Below, in pieces: positions 1,670 to 54,862 of a stretch of 55,727 bases of DNA (positions within the stretch are counted from its first letter, which is position 1; each line of letters begins with the position of its first letter). A program made the position numbers and the translations under genes. Source of the stretch: a virus. The DNA is taken from the UHGV virus genome UHGV-0036148; one strand, 5' to 3'. Below the pieces are notes generated by a model. That model had not been told where the DNA came from. It did not search any database and saw nothing but the letters and a program-made list of their open reading frames with translations.

Positions 1670-1859
1670 TATCGTCACCCCGTTTGTATATTTTGATTGG
1701 CTTGATTGGGATTGCTGGCAATTCACCTTCATTCAATGCGCTTGCCATGCCCAATATTAAACGCGCTTCAGCACCAGTAACTTTCTTACACCACGCACCG
1801 CCCGTTTTATCTTCGAACAAGATAACGGCAAACTGATCGTTTATTTCCAGCTTATCCAT
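1659..1859 (-). CDS. hypothetical protein (66 aa)
   Basis: start overlaps Q stop codon (TAATG); operon context. Confidence 0.4.
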   Translation of the reverse strand: MDKLEINDQFAVILFEDKTGGAWCKKVTGAEARLILGMASALNEGELPAIPIKPIKIYKRGDDNEA

Positions 1860-2581
1860 TATTCACCCCGTGTCACTCGTTTGATTTCGTTGTCAGCCCG
1901 CGCCTCTTCTTTGAACAATTCGGCAATGGCGTCTTCATAGAAAGCCCGGTATTTCTTCCACCATGTTGATCGGCTTACCGGGAAAACAAGCTGATTAACC
2001 GCCTGCCGGACAAGATCTACAGGGAAACGCGAGTACCCGCGCCCGCCGCAGTGCTGGCACGTTTTGAACACTGGCATTTCCGCCGCTTCACTGGCTGCTT
2101 TATCCGGTACTTCGCCACGGCCCTTGCATTGTTTGCAATGATTGCGAACCGTCCCATGCCCCTTGCATTTTTTGCAAAGGTGTTTCTCACCGTATTCGTC
2201 AAACGTAAATTTATATCCGCCGCACTCCATACAAGTTTTTTCCGTCGCGGCGCTTTGGCAATAATCCCGAAACGCGAAAACGGCAACAAGAATAATGAGA
2301 TCATTGCGTTTGGCCTCGTCCAGTTCCATAACGTATTCATAATCTTTTGCCATAGCCCTTAAACGCTCTGTAAGCAAAACTACGGCCTTATGTTTTTCGG
2401 CTTGTGATAGTTCCATCTTTCCCAAAAAAGCGCTATAACCAAGCTCTACGCGCGATTGCGCCATACCTGCCGCAGTTAGTGCATCCGTAGTATTAAGAGC
2501 GTCCGGGGACGTGCCCCGGCTTTCATCTGATAAACGCGGTGATTTTGGGAAGTGGAATTTAAGAATAGATTCCAGATTCAT
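1859..2581 (-). CDS. Q: late antiterminator Q (lambda type) with extra CxxCxGxG zinc-finger repeats
   Basis: N-terminus MNLESILKFHFPKSPRLSDE... and C-terminus ...GYSRFPV...ADNEIKRVTR parallel lambda Q as I recall it; four CxxCxGxG motifs. Confidence 0.8.
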   Translation of the reverse strand: MNLESILKFHFPKSPRLSDESRGTSPDALNTTDALTAAGMAQSRVELGYSAFLGKMELSQAEKHKAVVLLTERLRAMAKDYEYVMELDEAKRNDLIILVAVFAFRDYCQSAATEKTCMECGGYKFTFDEYGEKHLCKKCKGHGTVRNHCKQCKGRGEVPDKAASEAAEMPVFKTCQHCGGRGYSRFPVDLVRQAVNQLVFPVSRSTWWKKYRAFYEDAIAELFKEEARADNEIKRVTRGE

Positions 2582-3961: not shown

Positions 3962-4120
3962 AATGCTCTCTCCTTTTAAGGTGATTTCTACGCATTTCAG
4001 CGCTGCCGGATTTTTAAAGAGCATTTTGCTTGCTTGAAGTATACAAAATGGATACGTGTAAACAAGACGAATAGCGCCATTATGTGATCCACATCACGCA
4101 ATGGCGCCATTTTGTAAATT

Positions 4121-4909
4121 TCAGTCCGGCAAAACGCGGTTGAGCGTAGTACGATTGATGGCCCTGTCGTTAGCCAGGAACACAGCACGGGCAAAGCCGC
4201 GCGGCGTTAGTGAGCGGATCATCTTAGTGCGTTTCGACTTTCCTCCCAACTTCGCGTGCTGCTTACTGTCTTCCCATTCGTCCGGCATTGGCACAGGCCG
4301 GAACAGCGGCTGTTTAAATCCGTTGCCGCACCAAATACAAGTTTTCTTCGTGTATGCGTCGCGGGCCGCTATGTATTCAGGGAAGGCAGGATGTTTGTCA
4401 TCTTCCGGCAGGTAGCCACCGTAAGCGCACGGGTTGAAAATAAAATCAGGTTTACGCCATAGCGTTGACAGTGCGCCCACCGGATTTTCCACCATCCACG
4501 GCACGTTATACATATTCGCCAGTTTTTCTACCAATTTTGCGTTATACGCCGCCTTTACCTGGAAAGCAGGATCTTTTTTTCGCTTATCAGCGAACCAGCG
4601 AGCACCAGACACAGCGAGATCGTCGCACGGCGGAAAGCCCAATATAATGTCAGGTGCTGGATAAGAAGATAATTCAGGCGAGAACATTGCCAGGAAATGG
4701 CTGTCAATCCACACGTTAACGTATTCAATATTCGGATGAATGATTTTAACGCCTTCATAATCGCCGTGATTTGCGCCGTCATAGTTGAAGCAATAGCACT
4801 TATATCCTGCTTCCGCCCAATCTTTAACGGCGTACCCGCTGCCGTCGTACAGCGACCACACAACCCAACTTCTAAGCCAATTATTTAACCAGTGTTTAGC
4901 CTTGCTCAT
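4121..4909 (-). CDS. putative DNA C5-cytosine methyltransferase-like protein
   Basis: LYDGSGY (motif I-like), GFPPCDD (PC motif IV-like), MVENPVG (ENV motif VI-like); short, no obvious target-recognition domain. Confidence 0.45.
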   Translation of the reverse strand: MSKAKHWLNNWLRSWVVWSLYDGSGYAVKDWAEAGYKCYCFNYDGANHGDYEGVKIIHPNIEYVNVWIDSHFLAMFSPELSSYPAPDIILGFPPCDDLAVSGARWFADKRKKDPAFQVKAAYNAKLVEKLANMYNVPWMVENPVGALSTLWRKPDFIFNPCAYGGYLPEDDKHPAFPEYIAARDAYTKKTCIWCGNGFKQPLFRPVPMPDEWEDSKQHAKLGGKSKRTKMIRSLTPRGFARAVFLANDRAINRTTLNRVLPD

Positions 4910-5451
4910 TTTCTGCCCTCAAACGTGAAATAGCGGCGCATGATGATAGTGATCACCGTTACCGCTGCCATTTTTGAGATGAATTGCATAGCTGATATTT
5001 CAGGCATAAACGCCATAAACGATAGCGTGGGGAAAATCAACGCATCGCCAATGGCTGACGCTATATTTGCAGGCCAGCGTTTCGAATCGAAATCACCAGG
5101 CAAAACCCGGTAAACACCGCCAGATATAAGCGCACCGGAAACAACCGCGACGAATGACGCGATTGCCACCATCCCTGCGTCATAATTTATCAGCACCGTG
5201 ATCGCGCCAGCGGCGGCGCATGTTGTAGCCGACCATTTCAGGCCGCCGTCATATAACAGAAAGTCGCGGATCATCATATTGACACACACTACGGCTACCG
5301 TGGTGATAGGGATCACCCACGGTCCGCAATGGTTAACAATAAGGTTGATGATCACGAAAACGGCGACATAAACGCAGGCCAATAACCTGTCAATTGCCAC
5401 CTTTTTCATTTGGGTCATACCTCTTATCGCGAATAGCTTCAGATCTGTCAA
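4906..5451 (-). CDS. multi-pass membrane protein
   Basis: several long hydrophobic segments (VYVAVFVIINLIV, ITTVAVVCV, IASFVAVVSGALISGGV, AVTVITIIM). Confidence 0.45.
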   Translation of the reverse strand: MTDLKLFAIRGMTQMKKVAIDRLLACVYVAVFVIINLIVNHCGPWVIPITTVAVVCVNMMIRDFLLYDGGLKWSATTCAAAGAITVLINYDAGMVAIASFVAVVSGALISGGVYRVLPGDFDSKRWPANIASAIGDALIFPTLSFMAFMPEISAMQFISKMAAVTVITIIMRRYFTFEGRK

Positions 5452-5887
5452 AACTCAAATCAAGCCGAGTTGAAATACAACCGCATTGAGGGTTAAGCAT
5501 TGAAGGGGGCAACCCCTTACAGCTTGTTATTGCTCCGTCATTTATTATTCCATCATTAATATTGGCGGCAGTGAACTGATTTTTCTTTAGCTCTTCATCG
5601 CGATCATTTAATATTTGCTCCGCTTTTAGTGCGCTGTAGCTGATTAAGTCAACCAAAGTATCAGTAGGGTCAGAACCATTAGCCAAAATGGCCTCTAAAC
5701 GCGCTTCCTTGAGGCAAATCATCAGATCCCATACATCAAGTGGTGTTAAGTTTGCGCCCTTCTTAGCGTTGTATATAGTGGCTATTTTTGGCGCTGATTT
5801 TTCCTCTTTTCTGTCGTAGCCGTTTTGTTTACCTCTTTGCTCTATTGTTTCCGCTGCAAGTCGTAATAAATCTGCTGCATTAGTCAT
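5390..5887 (-). CDS. hypothetical protein
   Basis: ORF between the two methyltransferase genes; start taken at internal ATG after Dam stop. Confidence 0.35.
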   Translation of the reverse strand: MTNAADLLRLAAETIEQRGKQNGYDRKEEKSAPKIATIYNAKKGANLTPLDVWDLMICLKEARLEAILANGSDPTDTLVDLISYSALKAEQILNDRDEELKKNQFTAANINDGIINDGAITSCKGLPPSMLNPQCGCISTRLDLSFDRSEAIRDKRYDPNEKGGN

Positions 5888-6419
5888 TATCTGCACCTCT
5901 TGCATATAGCTCTTTACGTGTTATCTGCGTGAAAATACATTCATGTCTGCACCGTGGATGCCAGATCAAAAACAAGCTCCCTTTGTTGTTTCCGCTCACT
6001 GGCTTACCAGTCGCAGCATTTATAAAAGCCAGCCGCCCGCGCGTGATTAATCGGCATTCGCTTGCCGTCTCAACGCCGTTCATAAACCAGCTAACAGAAA
6101 TGTCAGCGGGCAATAACATTACGCAACCGATGTGGTTTCGGCTGTGTTCAAGCGCCGCTTTATCAACGAATGGCCCCGGGTTCGAATATGGTGGATTCAT
6201 CCAGACATACTCACCAGGCATTGCCACCGCTCCCCACGGATAATGCAACGTGTCCATTTCTTCGGTTATATATCGCGGTATTAATGCGTTTGCTTCGTTT
6301 GCTGCCACATCTGCGACAAACTCGAACTCGCGATCCATTCCTCTAAAAACTGGTTTAGGTGTCTGCCACAGGTCTTTAATTTCCTTCGGCGTACTGCTGC
6401 CTCCAAAATCATTTTTCAT
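5880..6419 (-). CDS. phage DNA N6-adenine methyltransferase (Dam-like)
   Basis: LWQTP ... MNPPYS (NPPY catalytic motif) typical of phage Dam N6-MTases; ATG at 6419 with GGGTGG SD. Confidence 0.7.
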   Translation of the reverse strand: MKNDFGGSSTPKEIKDLWQTPKPVFRGMDREFEFVADVAANEANALIPRYITEEMDTLHYPWGAVAMPGEYVWMNPPYSNPGPFVDKAALEHSRNHIGCVMLLPADISVSWFMNGVETASECRLITRGRLAFINAATGKPVSGNNKGSLFLIWHPRCRHECIFTQITRKELYARGADND

Positions 6420-6431
6420 TATGACCACCCA

Positions 6432-7609: not shown

Positions 7610-7686
7610 CTTGTCTTCCTCCGTGCCGTAAACCTTTTAATTTCAGTTCACAAAACGGATTCGCAATCACAACACAAAATGTATAT

Positions 7687-7708
7687 TTATGTGATCGCAA
7701 TCACAATG
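7687..7708. promoter_or_regulatory. CRP-consensus palindrome TGTGA-N6-TCACA
   Basis: ttaTGTGAtcgcaaTCACAatg, perfect half-sites with 6-bp spacer, in a 100-bp intergenic gap. Confidence 0.45.
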
Positions 7709-11528: not shown

Positions 11529-11819
11529 TTAATGGTAGCGGACTTTATCCAGGGGTTTCTCCCCTAAATGGCGTGGTTGCGTTGCGTGGTAGTAGCTGCC
11601 GCTTTCATTTTCCGTATACCATTTTACTGATCCTTTGCGACGTTCTTTAATGCTATTTGGTTTGCATCTTTCCTCGTTTGCAAATCGAATAGCTTTATCC
11701 ACATTGTCTGTTTTATTAATTGCAGGTGATGATTTTCTTTCGTTTTCTCTTTTTATCCTTCTGCGTTCCCTGGCGTTCATTTTGCTATCACATTTTCCAT
11801 ACATAATTGTAACGCTCAT
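11529..11819 (-). CDS. putative N-like antiterminator (arginine-rich motif protein)
   Basis: NARERRRIKRENERK arginine-rich motif near N-terminus; first gene of the leftward operon. Confidence 0.3.
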   Translation of the reverse strand: MSVTIMYGKCDSKMNARERRRIKRENERKSSPAINKTDNVDKAIRFANEERCKPNSIKERRKGSVKWYTENESGSYYHATQPRHLGEKPLDKVRYH

Positions 11820-12160
11820 AATCTGATCTCCGTATATCCTTGATGAAACTTAATAAAAAATCATCTTCGTTAATTGCCGCACTTCCAGCGGCTGACCAGA
11901 TTTTTAATGAGCGGCTTAACATCTTTCAACTAATCCCGCAATCATCGCCGTTTCCGGTGTGACCTTGCTCACTCCAAGCAAGCTGACTCGTCGCCTTGCG
12001 TGCGGTTTCGTGGGGGATGTAACGCTTTAAACACCCCATGCGCCTTGTTATCAGTGCCGCTTTCGGTCCCCCATCGGGGAGTTACTCCACGGTTGACAAG
12101 GTGTTAAGCCTGATTTTTAAAGTGCCAGGAAGCTGCTTTTGTTACCTACGCCCTTCCTTT

Positions 12161-12196: not shown

Positions 12197-12289
12197 TCCA
12201 TTTTGTATACTTTTTTAAAATATTTTATATGCTATTGATATCTAAACAATAAATAGCGTTTTCTGTTTACGTTTTGGTGTTTTTTTGGG

Positions 12290-12968: not shown

Positions 12969-13273
12969 GTCGCTACCCTATAACCTAAAAAATTTTGATG
13001 CAAGTCACAAAACGTGTTTTTCAAGTCTTGACCCGTTAGCGCCATTCTGTAAACTTGCTGACAAGGTAAAGCCATACTTGCAATGATGCAAGGAAAAAGA
13101 TAAGGGAAAGCACAAAAAGGCCGACGCCTTAAGCTCTTTAAAAATCCGGTGTCGCTGCGAAGCGAAAAACAAATATCACGCAACGGCGGGATCTGTTGAG
13201 CGGTCAGTCACTGCTATCTAATGCTAATGGGATGCCCGCCCGCGCGTTCATTTTAACCATAGGAGAAAATACA

Positions 13274-13528
13274 ATGAGCATGAACATGATTAGCGAAGTA
13301 TGGAAAGTAAAACTTAACAGCCCGATTCAAAAACTGGTCTTAATGGCTCTGGCTGAAAAGGCAGATAACCGCCGTCACGTCATGGTATCACGACAAGAAA
13401 TTGCAAAAATGTGTGAACTTCCTGTTCATACGGTACATGATGCCTTCGCTGCGTTAATGCATAAAGGGTTTGTTTGTCGTCTTGATGCGTTCAGTGATGT
13501 CTATGTAGTGATGTTACCGGAGGAATGA
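13274..13528 (+). CDS. HTH DNA-binding protein, Cro-like candidate
   Basis: first gene of rightward operon divergent from repressor; AGGAG SD before ATG 13274; HTH-like segment. Confidence 0.45.
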   Translation: MSMNMISEVWKVKLNSPIQKLVLMALAEKADNRRHVMVSRQEIAKMCELPVHTVHDAFAALMHKGFVCRLDAFSDVYVVMLPEE

Positions 13529-13531
13529 TCT

Positions 13532-14578
13532 ATGAAGTGGTTTAAGCATGATAGCGATGCGAACCGCGATGAAAAACTTCAAAACGTTTTATTAGATTAT
13601 GGCCTGGAAGGGTACGGGCTTTATTGGTATTGCCTCGAACTAATAACTTATGACGTAGATCAGCACAATCTGACTTTTGACCTACGACATGACGCGAGAA
13701 TCATTGCGCGAAACGTCGGATCGACTGAAAAACGTATAGAAGAAATGATGAAATACTTCATCGAAATTGGTTTGTTTGAATGTTCTCAAGGCCACATAAC
13801 TTGTTTAAAGTTATTGAAAAGGCTGGACCAATCAATGACTTCTAAAAGCGCTTACAGGGCCGCCATAAACACAGCGAAGGAGCAATTAAAATTAGAAAAG
13901 TTAATCAATCCAACACAAAAAGGTCATGATAGGGTCATGACCGGGTCAGGAAAGGGTCATGAATTAGAATTAGAAGAAGAAAGAGAAAAAGATATATACA
14001 CTTCGTGTATTGTCGAAAATGAACAAAAAATGGTCAATCAGGATGGCGTAAACGAAGCGGCGTTGCGTTGCCTGGCCTTCTACAACGACAAGGCAGGATG
14101 CAAATGTCGTGATGCGAAGCCATTCATCGAACTACTGACAGAAACAAAAACACGTAAAGCGTATACGGAGGATGAGATCACATTAGTGATTGAGTGGGCT
14201 TTAACGCAATGGCGTAGCCGTGGTGGAACACCTAAGCCTATCAATATTTGCCGGGTAACTAAATTTGATGGGTATCTGACTGATGCTGAACAATGGCGCA
14301 AACTGTCAGCCACCGCAAACGCTGCCGACGTGGTGGAAGCATTTAACAGCACGTTTGACAGCCTGTTACCACCTGTCGAACTGGATCGGGATCTTGAGCG
14401 CAAGATCTATGCGTTCACTGACTACCTGAAAGACAAAAGCATTAACGGCTTTGTCGCCTACTTCGAAACGTTCAAAAACACGGCTTCAGATTTTTACTTC
14501 GGCGATGGCTTCACAGCGACACTTGATTTTCTGCTTAAACCAAAAACGCTACGCGATACACGCGCAGGCGCTCTTTGA
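13532..14578 (+). CDS. replication initiator / replisome organizer
   Basis: N-terminus MKWFKHDSDANRDEKLQNVLLDYGLEGYGLYWYCLE resembles the phage replisome-organizer N-terminal domain; contains iterons. Confidence 0.6.
   Translation: MKWFKHDSDANRDEKLQNVLLDYGLEGYGLYWYCLELITYDVDQHNLTFDLRHDARIIARNVGSTEKRIEEMMKYFIEIGLFECSQGHITCLKLLKRLDQSMTSKSAYRAAINTAKEQLKLEKLINPTQKGHDRVMTGSGKGHELELEEEREKDIYTSCIVENEQKMVNQDGVNEAALRCLAFYNDKAGCKCRDAKPFIELLTETKTRKAYTEDEITLVIEWALTQWRSRGGTPKPINICRVTKFDGYLTDAEQWRKLSATANAADVVEAFNSTFDSLLPPVELDRDLERKIYAFTDYLKDKSINGFVAYFETFKNTASDFYFGDGFTATLDFLLKPKTLRDTRAGAL
13915..14010. other. candidate origin of replication (iterons + AT-rich tract) inside initiator gene
   Basis: four 11-bp-spaced copies of GGTCATGA/GGTCAGGA followed by AT-rich attagaattagaagaagaaagagaaaaagatatata. 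Confidence 0.5.
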
Positions 14579-25620: not shown

Positions 25621-25642
25621 TTTGTGATCTGTGTTGCATTTT
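25621..25642. promoter_or_regulatory. degenerate CRP-like site upstream of lipoprotein gene
   Basis: tttTGTGAtctgtgTTGCAttt; left half-site perfect, right half degenerate. Confidence 0.25.
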
Positions 25643-25754
25643 CTGCTTACACAAAATGTATTTGTTGATTTATATCAATATACGAAATGTTGTTTTGTCG
25701 GATATTCAAGACACCGGATGAACCGGACGAGCTAACAAGAACGAGGATTAAAAA

Positions 25755-26003
25755 ATGAAAAACATGTTCAAAGTGGTTTTATTCTCTGCGGCTGTAGCTC
25801 TTACTGGTTGCGCTGTTGACAAAGAGGCCGCATTGCATAACCTGCCGAATAGCGGAGTAATTCCACAAGATGTTGTCTATGATGGTGAAGGTCATCTTGT
25901 CTATGACACTGAAAAACTGCCTTATACTGGTCAATGGTGTCATGAACTCGATCACAACATGCGCCGCATCGGTAGCCCTTCTAACTGTGTAGCTAACTAC
26001 TAA
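25755..26003 (+). CDS. small lipoprotein (moron)
   Basis: signal peptide with lipobox LTGC; AGGA SD; opposite strand between J and tail fibre; own terminator. Confidence 0.6.
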   Translation: MKNMFKVVLFSAAVALTGCAVDKEAALHNLPNSGVIPQDVVYDGEGHLVYDTEKLPYTGQWCHELDHNMRRIGSPSNCVANY

Positions 26004-33361: not shown

Positions 33362-33383
33362 TTTGTGATCGCCGTCACGCTAA
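33362..33383. promoter_or_regulatory. degenerate CRP-like site in divergent region between L and plus-strand moron cassette
   Basis: tttTGTGAtcgccgTCACGc. Confidence 0.25.
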
Positions 33384-33473
33384 ATCATACCAAAACGGTT
33401 GATAGCGATTTTTACAATATGTATATTGTACTCAAAAGGAAGCATGGTTAACAAAATGGCGCGGAGGTGTGAG

Positions 33474-34984: not shown

Positions 34985-35020
34985 ATACATCTTTACGCGC
35001 TTCTACGCGAAAAATGAGAA
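34985..35020 (-). promoter_or_regulatory. conserved intergenic element (copy 1) upstream of M
   Basis: atacatCTTTACGCGCTTCTACGCGAAAAATGAGAAA; near-identical copy at 47609..47645. Confidence 0.4.
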
Positions 35021-35127
35021 ATTCATCACAAGAATTATAACCAGTTTACAAAATGGCTTCACACAGTGCGTGACAATATGTATATAGTAAGCAAGAAGAA
35101 AAAGCAGTACCGACAAAGGAGGCCAAC

Positions 35128-38841: not shown

Positions 38842-39100
38842 GATTTAACCTCATACAAAATGTGATCTATGCCTCTATTTTATACAAAATGGATTTACCT
38901 CAGTGAACACATTTTGTATAAAGAAGCCAAAGGAAAGGGATAGAGCGAAGGGACTTAAAAGGCCGGATTGACCGGAGGAAGCAAAAGAGGATAAGAAAAT
39001 GAAAAACGTAAACTACCACCCCAACGAACATGAGCGCTATGCTGACTTTATCGAGCAAATGTTAAAAGCGCTGAAAAACAAAAACTAAGCGGGGTGAAAT

Positions 39101-47608: not shown

Positions 47609-47645
47609 ATACATGTTTACGCGTTGCTACGCGAAAAATAGAAAA
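47609..47645 (-). promoter_or_regulatory. conserved intergenic element (copy 2) upstream of portal
   Basis: atacatGTTTACGCGTTGCTACGCGAAAAATAGAAAA. Confidence 0.4.
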
Positions 47646-47671
47646 ACTTGTGGGGGATTGTGGGATGGTTT

Positions 47672-52237: not shown

Positions 52238-52438
52238 TTACTTATTCCCCATTCGCGCGTCGTGTTCCTCTTGCGCTCGCTTGTTCTCCTGTGATTTGAA
52301 GTAATAGTTAACGGCAAATGTGCCTACGGTTGATAAGATACCCACAAAGACGGCAATATCATTGATGGTTATCGCGCCGAAAAAAGCAGTTACGGCCCCA
52401 GTCACATACGCGCACGCCTCCCGTATTCTGTCTAACAT
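52238..52438 (-). CDS. holin (pinholin-like, two TM segments)
   Basis: 66 aa, two hydrophobic segments, charged C-terminus, immediately upstream of SAR endolysin. Confidence 0.65.
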   Translation of the reverse strand: MLDRIREACAYVTGAVTAFFGAITINDIAVFVGILSTVGTFAVNYYFKSQENKRAQEEHDARMGNK

Positions 52439-53663: not shown

Positions 53664-53921
53664 TCATTCTCCTTCGTAAAGAATTGTTACCAGTTCTGCA
53701 TCTGTTAGCGTGTTGTGATCTTTATAAGTACCGTAGCGAGCAACGAAAGCTATTTCGCCAGCTATTTTCCGCCACATAGGGATCGACTCATCAAAATAGG
53801 TGTTCTCCATTGCCTCCCTGTATGCCAGTTCATAAAAACGCCCACGGTTAACATCTTCAATCACGCGGCTATACGTGCCATCGGTACGACTTACGCCGCG
53901 CCATAGCCTGAACACAACCAT
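53664..53921 (-). CDS. hypothetical protein (85 aa)
   Basis: ORF in operon context. Confidence 0.4.
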   Translation of the reverse strand: MVVFRLWRGVSRTDGTYSRVIEDVNRGRFYELAYREAMENTYFDESIPMWRKIAGEIAFVARYGTYKDHNTLTDAELVTILYEGE

Positions 53922-53923
53922 AA

Positions 53924-54223
53924 TTAAAACTCCGCACCAGGTAAGCTACGCGCTTTGTTTACCACATCGCTTTCTAGTCTACGACGCGCTTTATAATTCA
54001 TGTTCGACATAAAGATTGCAGGTGTTTCATCATACCATGCCTTAATTTTTAACAACTGATCCACAGTGAAAACCATGTCATCATCTGTTATGTATAGCCA
54101 GTCTTCGCGCTTGCCGACCACAACATGAGATTTTCCCCAACTGTCTTTAAACTCATAATCGCAGAAGGCATCACCTTTAGGCACTTCAACAAAACAGCAC
54201 GCTATGAACTTATTGCTTTTCAT
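53924..54223 (-). CDS. hypothetical protein (99 aa)
   Basis: ATG 54223; longer frame would begin inside an intergenic hairpin. Confidence 0.4.
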   Translation of the reverse strand: MKSNKFIACCFVEVPKGDAFCDYEFKDSWGKSHVVVGKREDWLYITDDDMVFTVDQLLKIKAWYDETPAIFMSNMNYKARRRLESDVVNKARSLPGAEF

Positions 54224-54262
54224 GATTTTGTCCCATCTGTCTTTCTGTGGTTTATATATAAC

Positions 54263-54292
54263 AAAATGGCATCGCCGGAGAAATGCCATTTT
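54263..54292. promoter_or_regulatory. perfect 10-bp inverted repeat hairpin in intergenic gap
   Basis: AAAATGGCAT-cgccggagaa-ATGCCATTTT. Confidence 0.4.
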
Positions 54293-54295
54293 GTA

Positions 54296-54317
54296 TACAT
54301 TGTGATACAGATCACAT
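54296..54317. promoter_or_regulatory. CRP-consensus palindrome TGTGA-N6-TCACA
   Basis: cattgTGTGAtacagaTCACAtttt; perfect half-sites, 6-bp spacer, A/T flanks as in CRP consensus. Confidence 0.45.
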
Positions 54318-54326
54318 TTTGTTCAT

Positions 54327-54614
54327 TTAACTTGCATTTTCATCTACCTTTAAATAATTTTTCGTGTCAATACCTGCCGGATACCTTGAAAATTGCGCTA
54401 ACCATTGTCCGGTAATGTTTTTCACCAGTGCATAATCAAGATCGCCGCAGTAGAATACCTGGTACATTGTCCCTTCGTTATCATCCATAACAAAGACCAT
54501 CGGATCAGTAGTCGCATTGCGCAGCCTGTGAATCGTGTAAGCCTGGCCAGTAGTGAATTTGTACTCGTTACACGTTGTGCGGCAAAACATCCGGTCAAAA
54601 TAGCTTTCCATCAA
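54327..54614 (-). CDS. hypothetical protein (95 aa)
   Basis: ORF in operon context. Confidence 0.4.
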   Translation of the reverse strand: MMESYFDRMFCRTTCNEYKFTTGQAYTIHRLRNATTDPMVFVMDDNEGTMYQVFYCGDLDYALVKNITGQWLAQFSRYPAGIDTKNYLKVDENAS

Positions 54615-54862
54615 AAAATCCCCTTATAATCGACCGTGTATTTTGCTATCAGCTTCCATTCACAATAGCTTTCCATGTCTCGCGGCTGCCAGCCTTTCAT
54701 GCCTACAGCACTCCGCGCAGCGTGACGGCGATAATCGTCATTAAGATCCGCAATACACCACGGCTGAAGAAAAAACATATAATTCGCTTCGTTAACCAGG
54801 ATAGACATTAGTCTTCCAGTGGCCTTATCTTTCGCCCTGAAATAACTTACCTTGATTTTCAT
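54611..54862 (-). CDS. hypothetical protein (83 aa)
   Basis: ORF in operon context. Confidence 0.4.
   Translation of the reverse strand: MKIKVSYFRAKDKATGRLMSILVNEANYMFFLQPWCIADLNDDYRRHAARSAVGMKGWQPRDMESYCEWKLIAKYTVDYKGIF

Follow-up and report, generated by a model that had tools for sequence, protein, structure and literature searches.

The window, by which we mean the whole stretch of 55,727 nt that was analysed, is on sequence grounds the complete genome of an mEp021-like temperate coliphage of the mEpimmI group. In the stretches tested it shares ~90% identity with mEp013, mEp044, mEp554, mEp010, mEp021, mEp515 and MagusPhagus. Its gene order is that of a complete genome, circularly permuted with respect to the mEp021 record. 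Small minus-strand genes between Q and the lysis genes run across positions 1/55727, so that the ends of the record are arbitrary cuts in a circular or permuted genome. The recorded hosts of the relatives are all E. coli. Phages of this type are temperate, Nus-dependent, non-lambdoid coliphages (PMC11893012), and human faecal samples reportedly contain mEpimmI phages as often as lambdoid ones (PMC11893012). For mEp021, three nut sites and five to six terminators have been described, along with an N-like protein (Gp17) and a CI-like repressor (Rep021); no mEpimmI promoters or operators are described in published work (PMC11893012). The window contains the following landmarks:

11529-11819, minus strand: N-like gene, from which the minus-strand operon runs in the order erf, ssb, Dam, Dcm, ninF, ninG, Q
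5880-6428, minus strand: Dam-family methylase (PF05869, E=7e-51)
4121-4909, minus strand: Dcm
1859-2581, minus strand: Q, lambda-type (PF03589)
52238-52438, minus strand: holin; lysis genes, then structural genes, past the window ends
11912-11870, minus strand: nutR1, with boxA at 11912-11898
4022-3985, minus strand: nutR2, with boxA at 4022-4008
from 13133, plus strand: nutL, with boxA at 13133-13147
12196-12168, minus strand: TTGACT-17-TATATT, the strongest promoter-like site in the genome and the putative minus-strand early promoter
13028-13055, plus strand: TTGACC-16-TAAACT, promoter-like, the putative main plus-strand early promoter, followed by nutL

Two further observations concern this map. 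A fourth boxA-like sequence, GCACTTTAAAAATCAGG, lies at 12109-12125 on the minus strand, ~40 nt downstream of the minus-strand early promoter, with the hairpin GGAGTAACTCC next after it; the literature count of nut sites is three. The replication initiator is seemingly split into two plus-strand genes (13274-13528 and 13532-14578). Of the O-like initiator families, only the N-terminal 70-90 positions are matched by its 84-aa winged-helix protein, and the following gene matches the remainder.

The genome was searched for the CRP core TGTGA-N6-TCACA, and sites were scored by their mismatches to this core and against the published 22-bp consensus AAATGTGATCTAGATCACATTT. The first-pass annotation had reported two perfect cAMP-CRP consensus palindromes, A/T flanks included, in gaps of about 100 bp within minus-strand operons. 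Both cores are present, at 7690..7705 (site 1) and 54301..54316 (site 2), in gaps between minus-strand genes of 97 nt (7610-7708 minus the stop codon) and 103 nt (54224-54326), respectively. The flanks, however, match the 22-bp consensus only in part. These two are the only exact core matches in the window. By chance, 0.04 would be expected according to dinucleotide shuffles, where none of 100 simulations reached two, and 0.05-0.07 according to order-3 and order-5 Markov models, where none of 60 did. With at most one mismatch, nine sites were found against 1.4 expected, a number reached in none of 60 simulations, and seven of the nine are intergenic. At two mismatches (33 against 23 expected) the excess is gone. 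GTGAT-N4-ATCAC occurs four times in its exact form against 0.12 expected, and the matches are confined to spacing 4, which is the CRP spacing. The frequency of the motif, which the first-pass annotation had named as a point to be checked, is therefore above background (two exact matches against ~0.05). Sites with at most one mismatch number nine in the window, seven in mEp021 and six in MagusPhagus, and two, which is about chance, in the control phage lambda. Sequence comparison suggests that the palindromes belong to a conserved set of about seven host-CRP-type sites, and the two exact ones are the least conserved of the family. The sites and the promoter-like elements next to them are as follows:

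7690..7705: site 1, perfect core palindrome, TGTGATCGCAATCACA (minus strand TGTGATTGCGATCACA), 3 nt past the stop codon of the mEp021_25 homolog
7645..7672, minus strand: promoter-like element at site 1, consisting of TTGTGA (7672-7667), a 16-nt spacer ending in CCGTTTTG, and TGAACT (7650-7645)
54301..54316: site 2, perfect core palindrome, TGTGATACAGATCACA; its minus-strand half AAATGTGATCT is an exact 11-nt consensus half-site
54255..54295, minus strand: terminator-like hairpin at site 2 (54295-54262), then TTTTG and TATATA (54260-54255)
4083..4098: third palindrome, the best conserved, minus strand CGTGATGTGGATCACA, one mismatch, apical stem of the predicted terminator t4, upstream of nutR2
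4038..4065, minus strand: promoter-like TTGTTT-16-TATACT between t4 and nutR2, palindrome centre at -59.5
33364..33379: CRP-like palindrome TGTGATCGCCGTCACG, one mismatch, in the gap that separates the tail L gene from a divergent plus-strand accessory-gene island
33399..33427, plus strand: TTGATA-17-TATATT, the second strongest promoter-like site in the genome, palindrome centre at -62.5
35015..35030: CRP-like site TGAGAAATTCATCACA, one mismatch, 72.5 bp upstream of the predicted start of TTCACA-19-TATAGT (35058-35088, plus strand)
38861..38876: one-sided site, AAATGTGATCTA being a perfect consensus half and the other half poor, 60.5 bp upstream of TTTACC-17-TATAAA (38894-38922, plus strand)
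25623..25638: degenerate site TGTGATCTGTGTTGCA, two mismatches (one in MagusPhagus), upstream of a lipoprotein gene (25755-26003, plus strand)
12994..13009: CRP-like site TTTGATGCAAGTCACA, one mismatch, at -60.5 with respect to the main plus-strand early promoter, unchanged in mEp021 and MagusPhagus
11958 and 13048: CRP-like 16-mers TGTGACCTTGCTCACT and TGTAAACTTGCTGACA of the immunity region, which have a CTTGC centre in common with the site at 12994

Each of the two flagged sites contains one GATC, and the phage does encode a Dam-like methylase, as had been noted at first reading. GATC is carried by six of eight sites. The optimal CRP half-site, TGTGATC, itself includes GATC, so that no further reason for its presence is required. 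Genome-wide, TGTGATC is not an enriched word (13 against 9), and the idea of a Dam-related word was dropped for this reason. An interplay of Dam with the GATCs of the palindromes would be possible. The motifs ATCCATTTTGTATAC and CC(A/G)TTTTG are enriched in the genome. Their plus-strand copies were discounted because they are mostly start-codon contexts (ACAAAATGG) of minus-strand genes; the informative copies are the eight on the minus strand only, six of which adjoin palindromes. A separate exact GTGAT-N4-ATCAC palindrome, GGTGATAGGGATCACC, lies inside a membrane-protein gene at 5302-5317 (AGTGATAGGAATCACC in mEp021), and no promoter-like sequence was found at class I distance from it.

The palindrome at 4083-4098 had been missed in the first-pass annotation. 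Its hairpin corresponds to t4 of the mEp021 annotation, between Dcm and nutR2, the terminator status of which is predicted only (PMC11893012). Compared with the CRP core, it shows no or one mismatch in 39 of 40 IMG/VR relatives (30 distinct sequences). In 39 of the 40, the GTGA and TCACA arms are unchanged, and the four central bases are hypervariable, with two or three states each; position 1 is T or C, the GTGAT that follows it is constant, and position 11 is A or G. The promoter-like element downstream reads TTGTTn-16-TATACT in all 40 relatives; its spacer varies towards the 5′ end, and 15 nt further on comes boxA of nutR2. The t4 region, site 1 and site 2 have a layout in common on the minus strand: the palindrome, 17 nt, a -35-like hexamer, a 16-nt spacer ending in CC(A/G)TTTTG, and a second hexamer. 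The distance from palindrome to hexamer is 39 nt in all three modules, despite differing positions of the terminators. One unusual feature, as far as the predicted elements go, is a CRP-type site in the tip of a terminator ahead of a nut site.

In the 44 relatives in which site 1 was compared, it reads mainly CGTGATTGCGATCACA, but also AGTAATTCCGATCACA and TGTGGTTGCGATCGCA. The arms are CGTGAT..ATCACA in most of them and AGTAAT..ATCACA, ..ATTACA, ..ATCATA or TGTGGT..ATCGCA elsewhere. CRP contact bases therefore change at this site, and the pattern of purifying selection is only partly present. The downstream hexamer varies as well (TAAACT, TAAGCC, TGAACT). TGAACT puts a G at the critical -11 position in the window genome, and mEp021 has TTGTGA-16-TAAACT, with the palindrome centred at -59.5. 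The module of site 2 was found in 11 IMG/VR relatives with 0-3 mismatches and is absent from mEp021 and mEp515. Contact bases change here too (CTCGCA, CCGCA), so that the selection pattern is again seen only in part. The promoter-like sequence is TTTCTC-17-TATATA in the window genome and TTGTTn-17-TATATA, TATAAA or TATATG in the relatives, with the palindrome centre at -60.5. A consensus promoter scan detected no minus-strand promoter in the gap of site 1 or of site 2. As judged from the hexamers, the promoter elements downstream of both sites are weak in the window genome, where the class I position of the two palindromes is ambiguous, and better in the relatives. The sequence upstream of the site 2 palindrome differs in every relative, which makes the palindrome the left edge of a mosaic cassette. 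We also considered site 2 as an essential late promoter with a Q-binding element and rejected this, as the module is lacking in mEp021 and mEp515. A better PR′-like candidate is TTGTAG-17-TAAAAT on the minus strand just before the holin gene (52537-52455), with the strong terminator t5 (CCCGGCCCCGCGCCGGG and a U tract) ~20 nt further on. This arrangement resembles the lambda-style PR′-tR′ pair for Q, though Q lies ~5 kb upstream.

The degenerate or half copies that had been listed near 25.6, 33.4 and 38.9 kb do exist, but they most plausibly serve promoters of plus-strand islands within the tail operon and not the minus-strand operons to which they had been attributed. At 33364-33379, CGTGA and (G/T)ATCACA are invariant in 42 relatives and the centre is variable, the four central bases taking two to four states over this site and t4. 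The hexamers TTGAT(A/C)-17-TATATT of the adjacent element are conserved around a variable spacer, and this promoter is predicted to drive the plus-strand genes starting at ~33474. Because the plus-strand hexamers are conserved and the minus-strand -10-like word is not, the site was assigned to the plus-strand promoter. An arrangement in which the late-region palindromes occupy +1 to +16 of minus-strand ‘restart’ promoters was dropped, since those hexamers are unconserved (TATGAT, CATGAT, TGTGAT, CGCGAT). At 35015 the geometry in relatives is -70.5. At 25623, a weak -10-like TATACG (25679-25684) would give a centre at ~-60.5, the promoter call itself being weak. The islands behind the promoters at 33.4, 35.0, 38.9 and 25.6 kb are homologs of mEp021 gp74-71, gp68-65 and gp63, plus the lipoprotein gene. 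The gp74-71 homologs include a putative antirepressor, and the lipoprotein gene was tested for superinfection exclusion in a 2025 paper (PMC11893012). More distant phages (L191-L226 in IMG/VR, tail protein L 70% identical) carry a plain terminator, AGCCACCTCCGGGTGGCTTTTTTT, upstream of the tail L gene. Their gap has neither the palindrome nor a divergent island, which indicates that the CRP-like site travels with the island and not with the tail gene. Independently of these sites, a near-identical element, TTTTTCGCGTAG(A/C)A(G/A)CGCGTAAA, which is a small CGCG hairpin, was noticed twice on the minus strand: past the 35.0 kb gap (34990-35015) and ahead of the portal gene (47615-47650).

Class I CRP sites are centred near -61.5, -72.5, -82.5 or -92.5. 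Promoters were scored with a sigma-70-like matrix made from textbook consensus frequencies, and the start was assumed to lie 7 nt after the -10 hexamer. The palindrome centres fall at -59.5 (t4), -60.5 (12994), -62.5 (33364) and -72.5 (35015 and 11958) relative to the predicted starts, the candidate at 11958 being doubtful because it overlaps boxA of nutR1. Class I distances were observed at five of the nine near-perfect sites, and at five of the six for which a promoter-like site scoring at least 9 bits lies 25-140 nt downstream. When positions were drawn at random in the same upstream zones, the mean was 0.41, and none of 20000 trials reached five (P<1e-4). This P value is somewhat optimistic: the distance windows started from the canonical class I positions (-61.5, -72.5), but they were set once the first cases were known and were made one or two bases wider in the light of the data. 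Two-mismatch sites show class I geometry beside one of five strong promoters. These distances suggest that the palindromes stand at class I CRP positions with respect to the promoter-like sequences. TTGACC-16-TAAACT and TTGATA-17-TATATT are near consensus, so that an activator would not be needed there. An A/T-only palindrome, AAAATATTTT (12214-12229, centre 12221.5), lies ~60.5 bp upstream of the predicted start of the TTGACT-17-TATATT promoter, the same distance as that of the CRP-like sites.

In CRP-DNA structures, position 1 and the centre of the site are uncontacted by CRP, and the invariant positions are the contacted ones. Selection on the contact bases (G5, G7, A8 and their symmetry mates) combined with a free centre was found at 4083 (40 loci) and at 33364 (42 loci). 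Read in this way, the conservation at t4 and 33.4 kb resembles the footprint of a dimeric protein that does not read the centre. Full-consensus halves occur as well: AAATGTGATCT(A) is exact at site 2 and at 38861 (there as AAATGTGATCTA), these halves covering 11-12 bases of AAATGTGATCTAGATCACATTT. The data show that the motif is in excess, that it lies mostly between genes, how it is conserved and how far it stands from promoter-like sequences. We infer from this that the protein is probably CRP, that the promoter-like sequences would fire and that the effect would be activation. It seems somewhat more probable than its contrary that the palindromes are host cAMP-CRP sites, placed in class I positions at the phage's internal and secondary sigma-70 promoters. 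On binding to the 22-bp site, a dimer of cAMP-CRP would bend the DNA and, through the alpha C-terminal domain, recruit RNA polymerase. The targets would be the promoter between t4 and nutR2, the promoters in the two flagged gaps, the plus-strand early promoter before nutL and the promoters of the accessory islands. Taken together, these features suggest that part of phage transcription may respond to the host cAMP (sugar-starvation) signal. The first-pass proposal of internal promoters tied to host catabolite state, or of CRP-like operators, is thereby partly supported. The conservation of the family and the class I distances speak for it; at the two flagged sites themselves the hexamers are poor and the contact bases vary. 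Support is strongest for sites that had been missed or listed only as degenerate copies.

Conservation and geometry are silent on which protein binds the palindromes, and a phage protein that reads GTGA-N8-TCAC, either the CI-like Rep021 or another early regulator, might use them as operators. We consider this unlikely, though it is the main alternative. Such a protein would be an activator at the accessory and secondary promoters, from ~-60, and a repressor at the immunity region, and it would be biologically sensible for a repressor to activate accessory genes that are expressed from the prophage. The three CRP-like 16-mers at 11958, 12994 and 13048 cluster in the immunity region, and the one at 13048 overlaps the -10 of the plus-strand early promoter, a classic operator position. 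The site at 12994 may accordingly be an immunity operator, instead of or in addition to a CRP site. Operators of Rep021 are not described in published work (PMC11893012). In the window, however, the minus-strand early promoter has no such site within 150 bp, although an immunity repressor would need one there, and for this reason the palindromes were rejected as CI-type operators; the family does not flank the repressor gene with repeated operators that overlap both early promoters. Position 6 is C or A in the immunity sites, whose CTTGC centre is conserved, and T in the other sites, whose centre is free. A search of the proteins encoded by the genome for a CRP-type domain found no phage candidate. 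The only match, a weak one to HTH_Crp_2, is in the gp14 homolog (13274-13528) and corresponds to the N-terminal origin-binding domain of the O-like replication initiator; its only PDB match was a spurious repeat, and it was dropped as a CRP-like regulator. The recognition helix of Rep, KGGLSHWLNG, is unlike those of both lambda CI and CRP. Finally, abundant host CRP would occupy a perfect consensus site anyway whenever cAMP is present. The stretch that separates the repressor gene from the plus-strand early promoter (12990-13095) holds several CTTGC/GCAAG repeats, CTTGCAATGATGCAAG (13075-13090), CTTGCTGACAAG (13054-13065) and TCAAGTCTTGA (13021-13031), which are candidate Rep021 operators.

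Palindromes can also act as RNA hairpins, and those described here might be terminator parts, processing or stability elements, or antiterminator targets in the minus-strand transcripts. Folding predictions lend this some weight. The t4 hairpin, of which 4083-4098 is the apical stem, has a predicted energy of -26.5 kcal/mol (z=-4.6). At site 1, the right arm of the palindrome is predicted to pair with a downstream TGTGAT copy in an 11-bp helix (-30.4 kcal/mol, z=-3.7), in which one double change, ATCGCA/TGCGAT, occurs in three loci. The terminator-like hairpin at site 2 (-27.8 kcal/mol, z=-3.8) starts 5 nt downstream of the palindrome. In mEp554 and mEp010 the homologous position carries annotated ARNold terminators, and a strict consensus terminator scan of 53900-54700 found none. 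On the other hand, covariation does not exceed that of the controls, and the arms are invariant where the loop varies, whereas a helix conserved for structure only would show compensatory changes. Position 1/16 of site 1 is unpaired in 25 of 30 distinct sequences. A hairpin is impossible at 35015, 38861, 25623 and 12994, and the sites at 33.4, 35.0, 38.9 and 25.6 kb are best tied to promoters on the opposite strand. The constant 39-nt spacing in the three modules, kept despite shifts of the terminators, also argues against a role in RNA. Rfam gave no matches at gathering thresholds, and a riboswitch-like or other RNA element was rejected for want of such a match and of covariation. As nut/boxB-type hairpins, the palindromes are without a preceding boxA and the real nut sites lie elsewhere; their loops (UGCG, CUGU, GUGG) are not A-rich, unlike the boxB loops of this phage group. 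Altogether, we regard an RNA function of the palindromes as quite improbable. At 7613-7652 on the minus strand there is another hairpin (CCGUUUUGUGAAC...GGUUUACGG), immediately ahead of the ribosome-binding site of the mEp021_26 homolog. It keeps 98% of its pairs in 30 distinct relatives, and each of its seven variable pairs changes to G-U or A-U by a substitution on one side. Such a pattern hints at a conserved RNA structure, yet it is not above the shuffle control.

That the palindromes have no regulatory function and are chance matches or recombination relics at mosaic module boundaries, as the position of site 2 at the exact left edge of a cassette and the decay of sites 1 and 2 in some relatives might indicate, is very improbable in view of the statistical excess of the core, the conservation of the arms against variable centres in >40 genomes and the non-random promoter distance. 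For explanations outside the four considered we retain about as little weight as for an RNA function.

Assuming that the palindromes are host cAMP-CRP sites, the arrangement at t4 could be explained as follows. Read-through from the early promoter would halt at t4 unless the polymerase had been modified at nutR1. A CRP-dependent promoter right behind t4 would start new transcripts, which would gain Gp17 at nutR2 and continue into ninF, ninG and Q. If true, such a promoter between t4 and nutR2 would offer a reason for the unusual third nut site. A wider reading would join all of these elements: across the genomes of mEpimmI phages, at least seven promoters would be under the influence of host cAMP-CRP, and one of the sites would be in the tip of t4 before a private nutR2 promoter. 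Q and the accessory islands, including the exclusion lipoprotein, would be gated by catabolite state, and the GATCs would let phage or host Dam modulate or record occupancy; this would account for the three nut sites. We put this combined reading forward only tentatively and hold it in its entirety to be rather doubtful. If the sites do act through CRP, the present data would provide the first map of mEpimmI secondary promoters, and the nutrient status of the gut could tune lytic development as well as prophage accessory genes such as the superinfection-exclusion lipoprotein.

The arrangement can be compared with several known systems. In class I CRP promoters of the lac P1 type, CRP is centred at -61.5, or at -72.5 and further turns. 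The phage sites resemble these in their two-fold TGTGA-N6-TCACA with flanks rich in A/T and in centres 59.5-62.5 or 72.5 bp from the predicted start, and in several of the phage cases the -35 is weak (TTGTTn). The distance from the centre to the -35 is 25.5 bp in the three minus-strand modules and 26.5 bp at lac, the starts of the phage promoters being predicted. In contrast to class I CRP promoters, two of the phage promoters are near consensus, and one site lies in a terminator hairpin that is followed by a nut site. The plus-strand islands in the tail operon resemble lambdoid moron cassettes in having their own promoter-like sequences and terminators, and site 2 similarly opens a mosaic cassette of terminator, promoter and small gene. 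Morons are not known to have a CRP-type site in common upstream of several such cassettes. The late promoters of P2/P4 depend on Ogr/Delta, which recognise a TGT-N12-ACA dyad near -55 and contact the alpha subunit of the polymerase. A dyad at a fixed 55-60 bp upstream of several phage promoters is shared with that system, but here it is TGT-N10-ACA with conserved GA/TC inside and a centre at ~-60. An Ogr-like protein was not found in the genome; the small Cys-rich NinF homolog is without a Pfam match. Bound CRP protects chromosomal GATC sites from Dam, for example at the gut/srl operon. The phage sites likewise hold the GATC inside the TGTGATC half-site, and the phage adds a Dam of its own. 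In phage T1, cAMP-CRP directly represses the pir, dam and recE promoters, as shown experimentally (Laganenka et al. 2019, PMC6737242). Host CRP acting on several promoters of a coliphage, and development tied to sugar uptake, would be common to both cases (PMC6737242). The two phages are unrelated, and T1 shows repression with no binding sites reported (PMC6737242), whereas the predicted geometry described here suggests activation. If true, the mEpimmI phages would add an activating, multi-promoter case to this one experimental precedent of CRP control in a coliphage.
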